Source of the DNA: Leucoraja ocellata
Lineage: Eukaryota
Direction of reading: 5' to 3'
Length of the DNA: 64,000 nt
Assembly (NCBI GenBank): GCA_036785375.1
Contig: JAWMAR010000243.1
Location: 1-64,000, forward strand
The position numbers were made by a program, and so were the translations under genes. How positions within the stretch are numbered: position 1 is the first letter of the stretch; every line of letters starts with the position of its first letter. The notes under the pieces are model-generated. The model searched no databases. It worked only from the letters and a program-made list of their open reading frames with translations, and was not told where the DNA came from. Below, piece after piece: positions 387 through 61,304 of this stretch.

Positions 387-2281
387 AATTTCAGGCAATG
401 TATCATTGACAATGTACTGGCAACACCAGATGAAGAACCCAGATGTTAAAATGTTTCTCAGAATGTTCATAATCACCACTTAATGTGCAAAATTAAATCC
501 AGGGAATTTAATTAACGCTGAGCAAATGGACATAACGGCCTGATTTGCACTGGGGACATGGTATAACTTGGAAGTTGACAAGCAAGGTGATGGCCATCCA
601 TTGGCAGTGGCCTTACCATAGCACAGGGCACCCACTTCTAGGTTGAAAGTTGTGGGTTTAAGTCTGCCACAAGGACTGTACAAAATCCATGCGAAAATTG
701 GGAATGTTGTGGTACAAGAGGTGCACTTTTTGAGTCTGCTCCTCACGTGGATTTTAAACTTATGCTAGAAGGACAGAGACTTTATCTGATTTTTTAAGGA
801 AATAGAATGTGCAAAAGCTACGAGAAGAGCAAGTACCAGGGATTGCTCTTGGGTAGAACTGGTATGAACCTGACAGTCTAAATGGCCTTTTTGAGAGATG
901 TAACTCCTCTGTGAAATTGAACAGAAATGAGTGCTGAATGGATTCTTCTCTCTTCTGAATCATTCACCAAGGCACTAAATTAGCAGTTACCACAGATGCA
1001 TTTGGATGGATGACTTAATTTAGTCATGTAGCTCACCCTAAGTGTTTAGTCAGGCAGGCGTTTACTGGTTGTTTTCTGTACACAGGTGTTAAATGAAGTC
1101 TATTATGGTGGGCCGTAAAACCAAATGGAACTGAAATATGAACTATACTCATGCTGGACTGTGCTAGAGTCATGTGTGCTCAACTTTAGGCAGTTAAACC
1201 TCCTTAAGAAATATATGGAGCACAGCAGATAAGTTTGGAATTCTTACATTTAGCTTTTAAATACCTTTGCAACTGTAAAATACCTTCCACAACTGTAAAA
1301 TGGTTCACATTTATTGGTATCCTGCAGAACATGGCTATATTAAGAGTGACAAGGAATCTGTTGTGGTGCTGGGCAGCTGTTTAGTATCTGCTCAACATGT
1401 TCTCTGAATGCTGTCCAATAGTTTGACTTTTATATCAGACAATATCAGTGCTTATTTACTGGACAAAAAGGTGCCGGAATGTACCATTAGTAAACATGTG
1501 CCACGTTGCCAGAAAACAAAATAATGTTTAACTTTTTAGAGGCGCCCACCATCATAAAAAGCCTGGACATTACACACCTCAAACATTCTTCAGTTGGAGA
1601 TTAAAGTGACATATATTGAAGGAAGTTAAACCTAGAACATGGAACAGTACAGCACTGGAACAGGCCCTTCTGTCCCCATGGCTGTGCCAAAAATGATGCC
1701 AAGTTAAACTAACAAGTTAAACTAATCTGCTTGCACTTGTTCCATATCCCTCCATTCCCTACATAGCCCTCTAAAAGCCTCTTCAACACCACTATTGTAT
1801 CTAACTCCATCACCACCCCCGGCAATATATTCCAGGCACCCACCTATCACTATAACTCTTAATTATTAAAATTATTCAGCTGTAGAAATGTTTGATATTT
1901 TTAATTCCCCAGCATTGACACAAGGCATTAGGTAAATTAAACATCAGGGACTTGGCTGTGCCTTGTTTTTTATTTCCCTCCTCAGTTTCTGAGCCTTGGG
2001 ATGCTGTTGCCATGACTCTAATCTCCTCAGTGACAGAGATCCACTCATTATAGCACATGCCTTCCAAATCTGAAAGAAAATTAGAAAATGCTGGAAATAT
2101 TCAGCAGGTCAGGCCTCATCTGTGGGAAGAGCAATGGAGCTAATGTTTCAGGTCGAAGACCCCTTCATTAGAGACGGGAGGTTCCTGTGCTTCTACTGTT
2201 CTATGTTCTACAAGAGCTATATGTGTAAAGGCTCAATAACCATGAGATTTACCAAACAAATTGAATAATTTAAACCTTTAT

Positions 2282-2478
2282 GAAGATAGACACAAAATGC
2301 TGGAGTAACTCAGCGGACAGGCAAGAATGGGTGACGTTTCGGGTCAAGACCCTTCTTCAGACTGAAACGTCATGTGACCCATTCCTTCTACCCAGAGATG
2401 TTGCCTGTCACACTGAGTTACTCCAGCATTTTGTCTATCTTCGGTATAAACCAGCATCTGCAGTTCCTTCCTACACAT
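2282..2478. mobile_element. Fold-back Penelope-terminus mini-element with a hammerhead core on the minus strand (2333-2360)
   Basis: gaagatagacacaaaatgctggagtaactcag ... ctgagttactccagcattttgtctatcttc inverted arms, plus the end motif accagcatctgcagttccttcctacac shared with many copies in the window. Confidence 0.75.
2333..2360 (-). ncRNA. Minimal type-I hammerhead ribozyme motif (putative)
   Basis: Minus strand CUGAAGA A GGGUC UU GACCC GAAA CG UC: all conserved core nucleotides present; helix I weak in this copy. Confidence 0.55.
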
Positions 2479-6026: not shown

Positions 6027-6175
6027 CTTCATACCGTTGCATTGTCAGCTACCCTAGGGTTTTGGAGGTGTTGTTCCTCCAGTTTATGTGCGGCCTTATT
6101 ATGGGAATGGTGGAGGCCCAGGACAGAAAGGATGTTGTTGAATGGGGAGGGGGAGTTAAAATGATTTGCAATCCA
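6027..6175 (-). mobile_element. Degenerate Penelope GIY-YIG C-terminal fragment, flanked by PLE-terminus copies (5910-6025, 6215-6330)
   Basis: Aligns by eye with 9120-9260 (ttcataccgttgcattgtcagctacc vs ttcataccattggattgtaagctac; ggaggcccaggacagaaagg; ggggagttaaaatgatt). Confidence 0.65.
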
Positions 6176-6984
6176 CCTTATGGACCACATGTGTTAAAGT
6201 TTCTCTCAAACTCGATAGATACAAATTGCTAGAGTAACTTAGCAGGACAGGCAGCATCTCTGGAGAGAAGGAATGGGTGACGTTTCACGTCAAGACTCTT
6301 CTTCAGAGATGCTGCCTGTTCCGCTGAATAAGCAAGTTCAGTATTCTGAAAAAACGTATTTGACAAATCCCATGATTCCTTTGCGGGAACTGCTGCTCAG
6401 CGATTCCCCTTGCTGCACCGACTGAGGTTAGAGCTTCGTGTTGGGGAGAATCGCACCTGCCCTTCCGCCACAGTGAGTGGGACCCGAATCCCTCAGCATC
6501 GTCACAGAGCGACCTTGGCGGGCCGGTGACCGTGGCTGCCGGTTGGTCCTCTCGACGCCGGAGCAGCGGAGGGGGAGGGTAGGTGCAATTCTCCCCAGAC
6601 CCGGAGCTCCAGCCTCAGTCGATGCAGCGACGGGAATCGGTGAGCAGCGGTTCCCGCAAAGGAGAGGTGGTCAGTGGGATAGATGGCGGGAGAGAGGAGA
6701 CAGGGACTGGTGAACGGGAGAGGGGCTTATTTCCCCCCCGCGCCGGCTGCAAGTCCGGGGTCGCCACCAGACAGGGACGGGTACATCTGGCCACCCTTCT
6801 GCATGGACCAGTGGAGAAGGGGGAACTAGTGTCGCTAACTCCAGTAACAATCCAACAGCGCTTGCAGCGTGGGAGACCCAGTTCGATCCAATGTTTATCT
6901 ACAGTAACCTGTAACATGGGCATGCGCCATCTGAATACCGAACTCGCTTATTGTTCCAGCTTTTTGTGTCTATCTTCGGTGTAA

Positions 6985-7177: not shown

Positions 7178-7345
7178 GTGACGTAACAGCAGCCGCGTTT
7201 GCCCCGGAGCCGCACGCCCCGCCCCCTCCCCGTGACGTCAGGCGGCGACGCGGGTGAGAGGTGACGTCACAGGAGCTGCGGTTGCCCCGGAGCCGGACGC
7301 CCGCCCCCTCCCCGTGACGTCAGGCGGCGGCGTCGTGGGTGAGAG
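7178..7345. repeat. Two-copy tandem duplication (83 and 85 bp) in the QSOX2 promoter
   Basis: Units 7178-7260 and 7261-7345 both read gtgacgt.acag.agc.gcg.ttgccccggagccg.acgccc(c)gccccctccccgtgacgtcaggcggcg..gggtgagag; a third gtgacg starts at 7346. Confidence 0.9.
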
Positions 7346-7381
7346 GTGACGCGGCTCGAGCGGCTGGCGGCCGTTGGGAAG

Positions 7382-7655
7382 ATGGTGGCGCCGGGTCGGG
7401 GCAAGTGCTCGAGCTCCCGTGCTCTGCTCGCCCTCACCGCCGCCACCCTCACGCTGCTGGGGCAGCTGCTGCGCCATGGACACGCCGCCAGCCTGTACGG
7501 CGGGGAGGACGCGGTGGTCATCCTGGAGGCCCAGGCGGTCAAGGCGCTGCTGGCCAACTCGCCCAGCGCCTGGGTGGTGGAGTTCTACTCGTCCTGGTGC
7601 GGCCACTGCGTTAGCTTCGCCCCCACCTGGAGAACGCTGGCCCGAGATGTCCAAG
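7382..7655 (+). CDS. QSOX2: QSOX2 exon 1: signal peptide and Trx1 WCGHC
   Basis: aagATGG Kozak context; MVAPGRGK...[11 protein letters not shown]...[26 protein letters not shown]; donor CAAG|gtgagg, phase 1. Confidence 0.95.
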
Positions 7656-7689: not shown

Positions 7690-8370
7690 GGGGCACACTA
7701 AGTGCTCGACTAACTCAGCGGGTCTCCGCAGGTCAGGCGGCATGTGTAGGAAGGGGCGGCATATGTTGGTTTTCGGCTCTGAAGTAGGGTCTCGACTCGA
7801 AACGTCACCCATTCTTTCTCTCCAGAGATGCTGCCAGTCCCGCTGAGTTACTCCAGCATTTTATGTCTGGACAGGCGACGTGTCGGGTCGGGACTCTTCA
7901 GAAGAAAAGAAACCTCGCCTATCCATGATCTCCTGAGAGACCCTTCTTCAGACTGGTTACAAGCTCCTGACCCAAAGCGACACCCAGATGCTGAGATGTT
8001 GCCTCGCCCGCTGAGTTACCCCAGCACTTTGTGTCTTTTTTTTGTAAACCAGCATTACAGTTCTTTATGTCTCCAGTTACATTGGGATGGTCCCGGAACT
8101 GACTGTGAGCCTTGATCTGTGTTATGAATGTTTTGGATTTCCACGTCACTAAAGCTGCAAAACATGCCGTAGCCTCACAATCCGTCTATTAAGAGAGAAG
8201 AGATTGCAGATGCTGAAATCTTGAGCAAAAAAAAAGTGGTGGATTAACGCAATTGATCTGTGGAGGGAGTGGACAGCCAAGATTTCAGGTCAGGACGCTG
8301 AGGACGTCGACTGTCCACTTACTCCACTGATCCGCTGAGTGACTCCAGTACTTTGTGCGTTTTTTTGTAA
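7690..8370. mobile_element. Cluster of PLE-terminus mini-elements at the start of QSOX2 intron 1
   Basis: Repeated aactcagcgggtc / gctgagttactccagc motifs; a hammerhead-like core with one substitution at 7779-7806. Confidence 0.7.
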
Positions 8371-9097
8371 ATCGTGTGATTATTATGTATTTGGTGATGT
8401 ACTTGGTGTGTTGGTGATCAGGAGAATCTGGAGGGATGGAAGATAAAGGGAATGTTGATGGTGAGATGCTGCTGTTCTATGATCTAGATCCAGTCATGAT
8501 GAAGGAACAGCAGTGTACTCTCTAGTCAAGGCGACACTCGACCAGCAGGGGGACCAGGTCAGAGTGTTCCCAAAAAACTAAAGTGTTGGAAGTGTTCAGG
8601 CTGATTGTAGTAGGAAGAGGAAAACTGGTCTCAGATAAGGTGTGGAGTGAAATCTAAAGCCGGAGAAAGGGATATAACAGCAAATGTCCGCTGTTCACTT
8701 CCGCTGGATTGGCACCTTCAGCTCCCTCTTTAATTTACCTTAGTTTCTATCTTTTTTTGACTGTAAATCTAGGTAGCTGTGCCTCACAGTCACCCCGACT
8801 GGCACAATAAATTGCAGATCAAAACCTGGCCGTTTTCTATGTTTTTAACGGGTGGGAAAGTGCGTGTTTTCCCATCCACTAACATGTACCGGATGTCTAG
8901 CATGTCCTCCACTTGAGATTTTCGGTCACGTGGGTGCGGATCTACGCTCTAGTGACCTTTCGTGAAATCACCCTATAGTGGAAGGGGACAGGGGGGAACA
9001 AGGGATGGGATAGTGAGGAGTGGAAGATGGTGGGGTGAGATAATGGATGCACATCAAGGTGGGGATGCTGAGGAGGGAGATATTACAGGTGGGGGTG

Positions 9098-9360
9098 TTA
9101 CATAAAATTAGAGAATTCAATGTTCATACCATTGGATTGTAAGCTACATAAGCAGAGTACAAGGTGCTGTTCCTCCAATTTGCATAGGGCCTCACTCTGG
9201 CAATGGAGGAGGCCACGGACAGAAAGGTTAGTATGGGAAGGGGAGTTAAAATGATTAGCAACTGGTTTGATCCCGGAGGCCTTGGCAGACACACGCAAGT
9301 GTTCGGTGAAATAATCACCTGATCTGCATTTGGTGTTGCTGATGTAAAGGAAGCAGTTCC
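9098..9360 (-). mobile_element. Penelope-like element, degenerate GIY-YIG endonuclease C-terminus
   Basis: ORF 9098..9406 (-): ...TEHLRVS...PVANHFNSPSH...VRGLLHCQSEALCKLEEQHLVLCLCSLQSNGMNIEFSNF, matching the PLE pattern EH..(P)VA.HFN...H....E..(L).(S)L.P.G.N. Confidence 0.8.
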
Positions 9361-9489
9361 TTGTATCTACATTTAAATTGGGATTGTCCCAATCATGGTT
9401 GTGCATGTCAGACTTTTGCTCTGCTGTTGAACGTTTTGGATTACCACAGCTTTAAAACTATAAAACTTTATTTCACCAATCAATCCGTC

Positions 9490-14094: not shown

Positions 14095-14285
14095 GCTGGA
14101 GTAAACTCAGTGGCTGACTTGCTGAAGAAGGGTCTCGATCCGAAAAGTCACTCATTCCTTCTCTCCAGAGATGCTGCCTCACCCGCTGAGTTACTTCAAC
14201 ATTTTGTGTCTACCGCTGACTTGCTGAGTAACTCCAGCACTTTGGGTTTTCCTCAAGATTCCAGCATCTGTAGTTCCTTGTGTCA
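14095..14285. mobile_element. PLE-terminus element nested in an older PLE-terminus element, with 13-bp TSD
   Basis: gctgacttgctga at 14113-14125 and 14215-14227 flanks agaagggtctcg...tgtctacc. Confidence 0.75.
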
Positions 14286-36914: not shown

Positions 36915-37905
36915 TGGTGGAATAACTCAGCAGGTCAGGCAGAATATGTGGAGGGTATGGATAGGTAACATTTCAGTTTGGGATTCTTCTTCAGACTCCA
37001 ATCCCTCCACAGATGCAGCCTGACCCACTGAGTTACTTCAGCACTTTAAGAATCCTTTATTTCATGATCTTTACAGTAAGCAAGTTGAGCCACAACTCTG
37101 ACAAAAAAAAAACTCCTGGAGAAACTCAGTGGGCCATGCAGCATCTGTAAAGCAAAATGAACAGATGACGTTTTGGGTCAAGATCCTTCTTCAGACTGCT
37201 GCCTGGCCCGCTGAGTTACCCCACCAGTTTGTTTTTATTTACTCAAAATTCCAGCATCTGCTGTTTCTTGTGTGTCTGTTTTGTACTATATGTACCACAG
37301 GGGGGAGCTAATGTGCAGGAAAGAACTGCAGATGCTGGTTTTAATCGAAGGTAGACACAAATTGCTGGAGAAACTCAGCAGGTCAGGCAGCATCTCTGGA
37401 AAGAAGGGATGGGTGACGCTTCTGGTTGAGACCCTTCTTCATGCTTTCCTTTGACATTAGTGCTTTGTATAAAACAAACTGTTTTTGCTGCTCTTAAGAA
37501 TTTTGGGGAACCCGGCCCGAATTTCCTATTGCCAATGCAAAAATTTACACTATGTTACATAGAATATTGTTACAATATGTTAGATAGAATATTGCAGAAG
37601 GCAGCTGTACAGTGATGCAATTACTTTTTTTGCTGACATTCCAGGAAACCAGGAAGAATGCCCGGACTGGTTTCAGAAACATAGAACAATGAAGCAATTA
37701 ATTTCACTTGGCTAAGCCATGCCAATATGACAGCAAGGTAGACACCAAAAGCTGGAGTAACTCAGCGGGACAAGTACCATAAGGGTCTCAACACAAAACG
37801 TCACCCATTCGTTCTCTCCAGAGATGCTGCCTGTCCCTCTCAGTTACTCCAGCATTTTGTGTCTATCTTCGGTTTAAACCAGCATCTGCAGTTCCTTCCT
37901 ACATA
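36915..37905. mobile_element. Cluster of four PLE-terminus mini-elements in QSOX2 intron 10
   Basis: Copies near 36915-37050, 37105-37275, 37312-37442 and 37735-37905 with aactcagc / gctgagtt arms. Confidence 0.7.
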
Positions 37906-52165: not shown

Positions 52166-52979
52166 AATACATTTGCAGATCTGTATGCATAATTTAAGAA
52201 CGTTTTGGAAACTCGTCGCCAGGGGCTATGCAAATGGCGAGTCTAATGGCTGGATAGATGAACTGGTCCCGTCACCATCTGCATAGAGGACACGATGGAT
52301 ATAATCTCGAGTTCATGTAGCAAATACTTTCTTGGATTCTGCAAGCTTTCCCCTTCCAAAAGCATTTTTGATTTTCAGTGGTTTGGTTAAGGCTATTTTA
52401 ACGTAAACCGCTATGATTGTTCTAAATTAAATAAGTGAAAAATATTCAGGGTAAGTGAAGCGTGTGAAGTACTGGCCAGGCCTGCTCTCCCCATACGTCG
52501 GGCAGTGGGAAATAGCCGGAGGACCTCAGCGGGTCAGGCAGCATCTGAAGAGGGAATGGACAGACGACGTTTCCGGTTGGAACCTTTCGTCAGACTGACC
52601 CACTGAGTTCCTCCAGCACTTTGTTTTTTGCTCAATACTCCAGCATCTGCAGTTTCTTGTGTCTCCTCCAGAAGATAGTTTTTTTTTCCACCGTATTTTC
52701 AACGCATTTCGTCACCACTCGCGCCTGCTGTACATTTGTCGACAACCTAAGGTGTGTGTTTTTTTTGTAGCGGTGGGTTTTAAATTATTATTAATGTTAG
52801 CTCAAAACCTAGCTTGCGTCGAATGGAATTTTAAGGAGTCCTGCATTAATAATTGAGGAAACTTTACGATCTATTTCCATGCTCGCATTGAAATGAATGA
52901 CATGGTCGCGATAAATGGATCCGTTCCTCTGCTGTCTTTGTGAATTAAAACAACAACATCAAGCTGGGAAGTTTAACGC

Positions 52980-57590: not shown

Positions 57591-57894
57591 CACTCCAACC
57601 CCACTGCTTCTACCCCGAAACCCATGGGTGTGAATGGAGTTGAAGTGAGTGTATCCCAGCCCCTGTCAGGTGAGGTTTCGATGCCACAGATATCTGCTGG
57701 TGTGCAGAGTTTCCACAGACGCTACAGCCCGTCCCATTCAATTATAACCCGCATGTGTTGCGCGTGTGTGGGAGGAGTGGGTCGGCTGGGAATGGGCGTG
57801 AGGTGTAATTAGGACTTTAGAGCGTGTTCCCAAATTCTCTCCTGACTTGTCCCAGTGAAGACCCGAGGGGGAGGCCCGTGTCCGGGAATATGAT

Positions 57895-58071
57895 GTTTAA
57901 GAAGGAACTGCAGATGCTGGAAAATCGAAGGTAGACAAAAGTGCTGGAGAAACTCAGCGGGTGAGGCAGTATCTATGGAGCGAAGGAAATAGGCAACGTT
58001 CCGTTGCCTATTTCCTTCGCTCCATAGATGCTGCCTCACCCGCTGAGTTTCTCCAGCACTTTTGTCTACCA
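57895..58071. mobile_element. Near-perfect fold-back PLE-terminus mini-element with 13-bp TSD
   Basis: ccgggaatatgat at 57882-57894 and 58072-58084; the arms ggtagacaaaagtgctgg...ggcaacg / cgttgcc...tttgtctacc pair almost perfectly. Confidence 0.85.
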
Positions 58072-59418
58072 CCGGGAATATGATTTTTTTTGTGTTGGTA
58101 GTGGGTGGCAGCGGTCATTGGTGTCCAATGTGGAACTCAAGTTGAGGAGAAATAAAATAGGGTCGTTTTCAGAAATTGCTCGATCGGCAATTATACCCTA
58201 TCCGCAGGCAGACGGTATCGTCTGCACCGCCTTCGCCCTGTTTAATCGCACGGTTCCCAACATTATGTAAACGTTTTTTATAGGTAACCCAGACCACCGA
58301 AATTTAAAAAAAAAATTGAGTCTGTAACTTCTCTCCCGGTCCCTTACAGCCTTTATTTTTACATTGCGTCTCCTTCACCTTTCCCCTCGCTGCAGTATTA
58401 TTTATTTAGGAGGAAGTTTTCGCTGGTATTCTGAGACACTAAGGAACTGCAGATGCCTGTTTACAAAATAGAAACACACACAAAGTGCTGGAATAACTAA
58501 CAGAGCAGAACAGGCAGCATCTGAGGAGGACATGGATAGGCGACGTTTTGAATCTGAGGAAGGGTCGTGTCCAAAAACGTGGCCGATCCATGTCTCGACC
58601 GACCGAGTTACTCCAGCACTCTGAGCATAGAACATAGATCAGGAATAGGCCCTTCAGCCCATGATGTCAATTTAGATTGCTTGATATTTAGTCATTTGCA
58701 CAACCAGTAGAATATGTGGTGTGTATATGGGTGAGAATTACAGAACGATACTGTGACGATTCTTACACTTAGCAGTCCAAACCAACGTTTAAAACGGCGG
58801 TACGCAAAAATGCTGGAGAAACTCAGCGGGTGCAGCAGCATCTATGGAGCGAAGGGAATAGGCAACGTTTCGGGCCCTTCTTCAGACTGATTATTCTTGG
58901 TGAGATTCAAACTGTACCGAGGGAACAATATACTCTCGTTATCATGAAAAAATAATTTCATCCTTTCACTGGTCAGATTTTCGTGCTTCTGATTTGGGCG
59001 ATTTGAAATTATATCCAATGTTATAACTTTAAAAAAAATCAAGTGCGAGTTTTGATGCGTTCTGTACCCAGGATAAGATGCAACAATCTTGTCTGTGAAA
59101 TGGCCCATTCTGGAATTTGGAATTTGTCTCGGCTCCAAACGAGTTACCCGGGGTTCAAAGTCAGACGGTAAACGAACCGAGCCGTTTGTCCTGTTAGAAC
59201 ACGAAGATAAAGGCAGAACATGCTGGAGATTTTCAGCAGTTCGGGCAGCAACCGGAGAAAAGTTGGTGTTGTAGCCGGTGACATTCCGTTAAGGGGTTTG
59301 ACGATATTCTCCCCATGGATGCTGACTGGGGTTTTTTTGTGGAATTTGTTTTATTTTTCGATTTTCATTACCTGTAGTTTTATTTTTGCTTTATCCTCCC
59401 ATTATCTTTATAGCACTG

Positions 59419-60878: not shown

Positions 60879-61017
60879 CCGCATGTAGCGTGAGTTATGC
60901 AAAGATGACACTGACATCTTGTCTGACGCGTAGATAAGGCAGATCGTGCATGTATCACACCAGTGCTATAAAAGGTAGAATGATTGCATAATTGTCCAAA
61001 CACATCAAGCTATCAGT

Positions 61018-61304
61018 GTTTAAGAGGGAACTGCAGATGCTGGAAAATCGAAGGTACACAAAAATGCTGGAGAAACTCAGCGGGTGCAGCAGCATCTATG
61101 GAGCGAAGGAAATAGGCAACGTTTCGGGCCGAAACCCTTCAGGGTTTCTCCCTCACCTACGCTATATGGGAAGCTGAAAGCACTAACTTTACTGGATCTC
61201 CTTTCGATATTTGAACGAGCATCAGGGTTTCGGCCCGAAGCGTTGCCTATTTCTTTCGCTCCAGAGATGCTGCTGCACCCGCTGAGTTTCTCCAGCATGT
61301 TTGT
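61018..61304. mobile_element. Fold-back PLE-terminus element with 13-bp TSD and a locally templated spacer
   Basis: tcaagctatcagt at 61005-61017 and 61305-61317; inverted arms about 61058-61138 and 61224-61304. Confidence 0.85.

Follow-up and report, generated by a model that had tools for sequence, protein, structure and literature searches.

Minimal hammerhead ribozyme motifs in the pLTR of a Penelope-like element of Leucoraja ocellata, and short copies that share a 5′ edge at the front of the ribozyme

Minimal hammerhead ribozymes have been linked to Penelope-like elements (PLEs) since 2014 (PMC4209133). As described in the available parts of that work, they are type I motifs without helix III, with an extra nucleotide that separates position 9 from 10.1, a G10.1-C11.1 pair and a palindrome at 15.2-16.2; they lie in the pLTRs of the elements, are scattered through genomes as single or opposite-strand motifs, and cleave weakly as dimers. 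EN+ Neptune-type PLEs combine a reverse transcriptase (RT), a Cys linker and, at the C-terminus, a GIY-YIG endonuclease, and their copies show 5′ truncation, partial tandems, adjacent inverted copies, target duplications, a 30-40-bp tail at one end and palindromes at inverted junctions (PMC8557442, PMC3846280, in the parts available). Neptune or Nematis elements can be told by the CX2-5CxxC linker that joins their RT to the EN (PMC8557442), and Neptune and Poseidon elements are reported from vertebrates in the accessible part of a recent preprint (bioRxiv 10.64898/2026.07.22.740005). The pattern of an inverted copy plus a tail, described for PLEs in general (PMC8557442, PMC3846280), has been tied in a study of the anole to two internal RT start sites (PMC11167929). 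The anole element itself, PAc, has its hammerhead at the pLTR-ORF junction and two 3′ ends that frame the tail; its ribozyme is reported to be protein-assisted, and unprocessed RNA to be the main template (PMC11167929). Animal retrozymes are tandem repeats with canonical type I ribozymes (PMC7229834).

The motif described here, at positions 2333-2360 on the minus strand of the window (the whole 64,000-nt stretch that was analysed), shares with the hammerheads of PMC4209133 the type I layout without helix III, the extra nucleotide, the G10.1-C11.1 pair and the palindrome, and it too sits in pLTR sequence scattered as single or opposite-strand copies. It differs in having a helix II of 4 bp and a helix I of 2 bp, the latter as short as in D. 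virilis, and in its numbers, with ~170,000 core matches against ~4,000 in coelacanth and ~9,000 in Xenopus (PMC4209133), counts made with different descriptors. Like the EN+ Neptune-type PLEs, the parent element has an RT, a Cys linker and, at the C-terminus, a GIY-YIG domain, and its copies show the same truncations, partial tandems, inverted neighbours, target duplications, tail and junction palindromes, whereas most copies here are cut to ~100-135 bp and no intact ORF was found. As in PAc, the hammerhead stands at the pLTR-ORF junction, two 3′ ends frame the tail and there is no sign of cleaved RNA as template; PAc belongs to the Poseidon clade, however, and its ORF starts inside helix II, whereas the likely start codon here lies ~145 nt after C3. 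With animal non-LTR retrozymes (PMC7229834, bioRxiv 10.64898/2026.07.22.740005) our repeat has in common that it is non-coding, related to pLTRs and equipped with a type I hammerhead; judged by its sequence, the motif nevertheless appears to be a PLE minimal hammerhead and not the ribozyme of a non-LTR retrozyme. Because the motif and its connection with PLEs were already known, we regard the finding as a further instance and not as a new kind. What goes beyond this is the fixed 5′ edge at the front of the ribozyme, of which the accessible part of PMC4209133 makes no mention. Among the papers listed for cartilaginous fishes and for non-autonomous pLTR units we found none on this family, and the supplements of PMC4209133 or of the 2026 preprint may hold one. 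Our preferred reading, to which we give a probability of roughly 0.8, is that the motif is a minimal hammerhead in the pLTR of a PLE, and that its short copies are decaying insertion products that are likely not self-cleaving. The ~170,000 core-intact motifs, which have fixed 5′ and 3′ ends and target duplications, offer a dense read-out of the poorly understood insertion cycle of PLEs, and they suggest, at the edge of the ribozyme, a start site open to experiment.

An earlier sequence-only reading had reported a full hammerhead core at 2333-2360, and all of its parts are there: the CUGANGA box, helix II, GAAA and C17, as well as the extra A and the palindromic ACGU to which it had drawn attention, the latter of which would make an intermolecular helix III. 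For helix II, 4 bp capped with a tetraloop is a better reading than the 5 bp with a 2-nt loop first proposed. Nine sites, this one included, had been listed, and while all nine do belong to one common repeat, a site-by-site check found both core boxes kept in only five (2333, 6279, 14122, 52566 and 58864). The copy at 2333 is the single fully intact one (1/9), with 4/4 helix II pairs, ACGU and the 2-bp helix I; at site 58554, G12 is changed. GIY-YIG relics had been claimed in the window as well and are present at about 9101-9361 and 6027-6175, both on the minus strand. The features are as follows.

2333-2360, minus strand: minimal type I hammerhead core, with C3 at 2360, C17 at 2333 and the predicted cut between 2333 and 2332
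2361-2365, minus strand: TCAGT directly 5′ of C3, containing the 2-bp helix I strand and an initiator-like motif at the 5′-boundary hotspot
2269-2363, minus strand: left arm of a fold-back insertion, an edge-started pLTR piece with an internal deletion and most of its tail missing
2364-2478, plus strand: right arm of the fold-back, an inverted pLTR piece truncated inside the hammerhead, with a ~40-nt PLE tail at its end
6027-6175, minus strand: decayed C-terminal fragment of a PLE GIY-YIG domain
6214-6328, both orientations: head-to-head pLTR pair, with the hammerhead at 6279-6306 (minus strand) carrying a helix II mismatch
7779-7868, plus strand: pLTR piece with hammerhead A9 changed, just inside the intron after a QSOX-like first exon
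9101-9361, minus strand: PLE GIY-YIG C-terminus (P0001) with a pyrimidine tract after it and no hammerhead end
14122-14214, plus strand: pLTR piece with intact core boxes, ACGU palindrome and helix I lost
37110-37266, both orientations: head-to-head pLTR pair of an older subfamily, G12 changed at site 37167
52510-52658, both orientations: head-to-head pLTR pair of an older subfamily, site 52566 with core boxes kept and a distorted helix II junction
57894-58081, both orientations: almost perfect inverted pair of pLTR pieces that lacks a hammerhead and gives rise to a sub-threshold Rfam MIR1507 match
58775-58888, minus strand: edge-started pLTR piece of the youngest subfamily, site 58864 with core boxes kept and the helix II loop deleted
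61017-61304, no single strand: pair of pLTR pieces of the youngest subfamily with partial hammerheads, site 61224 without the CUGA box

An Rfam scan of the window (E ≤ 10) gave no match to a hammerhead family. Minimal forms lie outside the Rfam models. The MIR1507 match, at 57953-58048 in the inverted pLTR pair, is below the gathering score; hairpins formed by such inverted pairs can pass for miRNA precursors, and they could be mis-annotated as miRNAs or feed small-RNA pathways. Behind the endonuclease relic, at 8860-8980 on the minus strand, a different repeat replaces the hammerhead end, and a similar stretch occurs in L053.

The very high copy number that had been proposed was borne out genome-wide, with 171,850 matches to the core pattern in the 3.44-Gb assembly against 314 in a reversed control, and 6,695 matches to an exact 35-mer against 0 in the control. 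In 400 kb of arbitrarily chosen DNA there are 26 core matches (0 in the control) and, using a profile of the region downstream of the ribozyme, 174 pLTR pieces (0 in the reversed control). Extrapolated, this gives roughly 1.5 million pieces genome-wide, which is too many, since some haplotypes are present twice in the assembly. C462, for instance, repeats stretches of the window, and G000:C462:1249395-1254054 (L002, L062) is near-identical to this part of it; this duplicate is probably a second haplotype, one of many such pairs in the assembly. The endonuclease relic of the window, P0001, returned 124,173 first-look candidates across the genome.

The motif is the hammerhead of the pLTR, or 5′ leader, of a PLE with RT and GIY-YIG domains and a Neptune-type Cys linker. 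With the window and its duplicate left out, a hammerhead follows the end of the endonuclease in 23 of 28 loci, at a distance of 102-231 bp in 20 of them, and of 30 loci with the exact motif, 13 (some of these being haplotype duplicates) have the C-terminus of an endonuclease upstream of it on the same strand. Walking along the ORF in the 5′ direction, we found the hammerhead, ~100 nt and the tail leading into the ORF start in L177, L193 and L197, and in the last of these a tandem runs from the endonuclease through tract and hammerhead to the ORF start. In the order observed, the end of the endonuclease is followed by a pyrimidine tract, TCAGT, the hammerhead, ~100 nt, the tail and the ORF start. 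The hammerhead also closes decayed PLE copies of 3.5-4 kb: N-terminus, RT, endonuclease and closing hammerhead occur in that order in L263, L264, L265, L267 and L269 (up to ~4 kb), and L262 has hammerheads at both ends. No intact PLE ORF was found, all 10 long loci being decayed, with longest stop-free frames of 175-347 aa. In the frame of L123, RT motifs are accompanied by a C-x4-C-x2-C linker and a domain of GIY-YIG type; a PDB sequence search with it gave no match at E ≤ 1, and the Pfam matches of the PLE to RVT_1 (E=0.0029) and GIY-YIG (E=0.0058) are both weaker than the curated cut-off. The Neptune-type assignment is made from the sequence of the Cys linker, a feature common to Nematis too. 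An open frame of 1027 aa was considered as an intact PLE and rejected, since it consists of an RT piece and a CR1-type LINE inserted in frame; at this locus (L121, G000:C76:2282500-2292400) the LINE lies inside the PLE RT and the long frame is open by chance.

The dispersed copies are decaying. Position N7, which the sequence-only reading had described as varying between A, C and G, is A in 59 of the 67 ungapped copies drawn at random. Helix II had been said to change its sequence while keeping its pairing, but across its four pairs in 222 non-redundant copies of this genome, whose subfamilies are close, two-sided changes number 3, 0, 3 and 0 against 1.7, 0.6, 2.1 and 1.4 expected from shuffles. 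The variation is one-sided, from G-C to G-U by CpG decay and from U-A to U-G in one subfamily. A helix I pair, 2.2-1.2, shows 6 two-sided changes against 2.4 expected (16/500 shuffles), a result that we do not trust given seven tests on related copies. Nor did excess conservation of the core among copies materialise (0.93 for non-CpG core positions and 0.90 for non-core positions, p=0.21). With no two-sided excess in helix II and a core no better kept than its surroundings, the variation that had been noticed is therefore decay. Among the 67 random ungapped copies the core is kept in 25, and core, helix II and palindrome together in 15; G12 is kept in 46 and G16.2 in 41, both being CpG sites. 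Between subfamily consensuses (five compared, n ≥ 30 each, three smaller clusters being left out) the core varies at 0/11 positions and the downstream region at 19/66 (p=0.056), a difference that is suggestive of selection in master elements only.

The predicted fold of the RNA of the pair at 2269-2478 is a single long hairpin (-103.9 kcal/mol, z -11.5), and copy 2333 is predicted to be inactive in this context because the opposite arm pairs with G12 to C17. In monomer folds the probability of helix II is at most 0.04, and at most 0.01 for two intact copies, so that the hammerhead is not adopted, and the computed self-duplex of ACGU is worth only -1.7 kcal/mol. The weak predicted monomer fold agrees with the weak cleavage reported for dimers (PMC4209133) or with a need for the PLE protein (PMC11167929), as far as the available parts of these papers go. 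It is likely that dispersed short copies do not cleave RNA on their own.

As had been claimed, there are non-coding short units: many copies are short, discrete insertions with target duplications. Head-to-head partners within 1.5 kb accompany 90 of the 174 random pieces; for 31 the sole neighbour, within 1 kb, is on the same strand, and the other 53 are solo. There are two preferred 3′ ends, ~40 nt apart, used by 100/165 and 65/165 copies. At the other end, the start falls 1-7 nt ahead of C3 in 51 of 165 random copies, ~10 times the background rate. The rate at which copies stop is 0.10 per nt at -5 to -1 (40 of 79 copies at risk), compared with 0.003-0.024 per nt outside -10 to -1 (setting aside the last bin, which is capped by the end of the reference) and about 0.01 per nt inside and after the ribozyme; there is no hotspot of 5′ ends at the cleavage site (0.013 per nt). 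The edge is fuzzy, extending from -7 to -1, and its first base varies. Among the 51 edge-started copies, 16 have an inverted partner, 27 abut unrelated DNA and eight have pyrimidine-rich sequence upstream; the latter may be long copies of unsampled subfamilies. Flanking repeats of at least 9 bp border 15 of 65 solo edge-started copies (drawn from all loci, with a few near-duplicates included), compared with 0.8% of shuffled pairs. The target duplications measure 8-19 bp and place the 5′ end at -3 in 6/15 cases, four more being ambiguous through microhomology. DNA contigs of run X15 have loose ends at the 5′ edge and at both 3′ ends. In L227, L095 and L126 one non-matching base (G in L227) separates the unit's start from the target duplication; it might have been copied from a cap or added without a template.

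CAGT is found at the edge in 59 of 86 endonuclease-linked copies, with TCAGT preceding or forming part of it, and TCAGT followed by C3 fits the initiator consensus TCAGTY given in the accessible part of PMC1779564; Penelope is described as having an internal TATA-less promoter (PMC2377424, in the part available). We see an even chance that the short units are cDNAs that ran off at the start of the RNA, at an initiator-like TCAGT three bases before C3, in which case the TCAGT at 2361-2365 (minus strand) would have a promoter role. It is unlikely that the edge is instead where a pLTR intron ends, at a 3′ splice site (pyrimidine tract, CAG|U), with the boundary created by spliced or mis-spliced templates. 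Such a site would account for the pyrimidine tract and the CAG that immediately precede the motif in most linked copies, and the intron of D. virilis Penelope does end against helix I (PMC4209133, PMC2377424, in the parts available), yet a donor GT at the stop codon is present in only 44/86 copies and is mostly missing in the youngest subfamily, and the target duplications adjoin the edge with no exon piece in between. Searching for the spliced junction motif gave 202 matches, of which 0/20 inspected were intron-less, these being variants of the tract end, and no GT-AG joint occurs among the RNA joints listed. An in-frame fusion of the endonuclease through the hammerhead, brought about by splicing, was considered and rejected, since half of the copies lack the donor GT; by eye, the frame is also not open in all subfamilies.

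The insertion cycle may be pictured as follows. If it works like the Poseidon element of the anole, the PLE protein would nick DNA and start reverse transcription at two internal sites on the RNA, corresponding to the two 3′ ends, and synthesis would then proceed towards the RNA 5′ end. Most element RNAs would begin at the initiator-like TCAGT, so that run-off cDNAs would yield the 95-135-bp units and read-through RNAs the long copies. The template would be uncleaved RNA, for which the fixed ends and target duplications argue. In master elements, the ribozyme would putatively cut only with the help of protein and/or as a dimer via ACGU. We suggest, tentatively and with slightly less than even confidence, that the ribozyme is the 5′ tip of the transcript, and that run-off has sown about a million 95-135-bp 'strong-stop' insertions without a non-autonomous master. 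Were this so, a family on the scale of a SINE would arise without any such master, and the job of the ribozyme in master elements would be the removal of a capped 31-nt leader or the cutting of read-through RNA, under the control of protein.

The short units might alternatively be a self-propagating non-autonomous family, akin to a SINE, of 95-135-nt RNAs with their own internal promoter that PLEs copy in trans. The discrete 5′ edge, the two 3′ ends and the target duplications would all be expected of it, just 14 of the 174 random pieces have an endonuclease end upstream, and in rotifers a pLTR sequence is reported to suffice for mobilisation in trans (PMC3846280, in the part available). We nevertheless consider it improbable, as long copies (tract- or endonuclease-linked) and edge-started copies occur together in each of the four motif-defined subfamilies (38/16, 57/25, 14/9 and 13/12) and no short-only subfamily is found among the four, at a low resolution of about 100 nt. 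Since each subfamily has both kinds, the short units look like by-products of an autonomous PLE.

It is very improbable that the repeat is a tandem non-LTR retrozyme, which would produce circular RNA through self-cleavage as a dimer. In its favour are the ACGU palindrome in 5/5 well-populated subfamily consensuses and the pLTR-derived retrozymes reported from one sampled chondrichthyan (bioRxiv 10.64898/2026.07.22.740005, in the part available). Against it, the motif occurs in 0/12 tandem arrays (period ≥ 40) found in 464 kb, although the rest of the 3.4 Gb may hold rare arrays; no run of three motifs is present among the first 100 listed core matches, copy ends show no excess at the cleavage site, and helix I is 2 bp without loop 1, the canonical helix I with its loop 1-loop 2 contact being absent. 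Neighbouring pairs within 1 kb among those first 100 matches are six head-to-head and three same-strand, counted by hand. Of the PLE derivative first proposed, the PLE origin and the minimal type I hammerhead stand, while the label 'retrozyme-like' finds no support.

RNA reads from another organism contain the repeat in abundance, with ~21,000 of 12.9 million records in run X23, on both strands, and show no pile-up of read beginnings or ends, a weak test in bulk oligo-dT and single-cell cDNA. As the libraries are not 5′-end data, the reads are no test of cleavage. An opposite-strand joint at L197:1048, exactly the predicted cleavage position, is represented by 52 and 44 reads (runs X23 and X24) and is probably one rearranged genomic copy.

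The window and other loci contain further features of note. A QSOX-type sulfhydryl oxidase gene has its first coding exon at 7382-7655 (plus strand), with a thioredoxin domain and a CGHC motif in a GC-rich island (Pfam Thioredoxin E=1.5e-9; best PDB match QSOX1); a pLTR piece lies ~120 bp into its intron. Just upstream of the QSOX-like start codon, at 7178-7351, is a two-copy 83-bp tandem repeat with TGACGTCA words. Finally, at L107:3884-8001 (plus strand) lies an L1-like element, possibly young, whose ORF1 measures 343 aa and whose ORF2 frame stays open over at least 723 aa.
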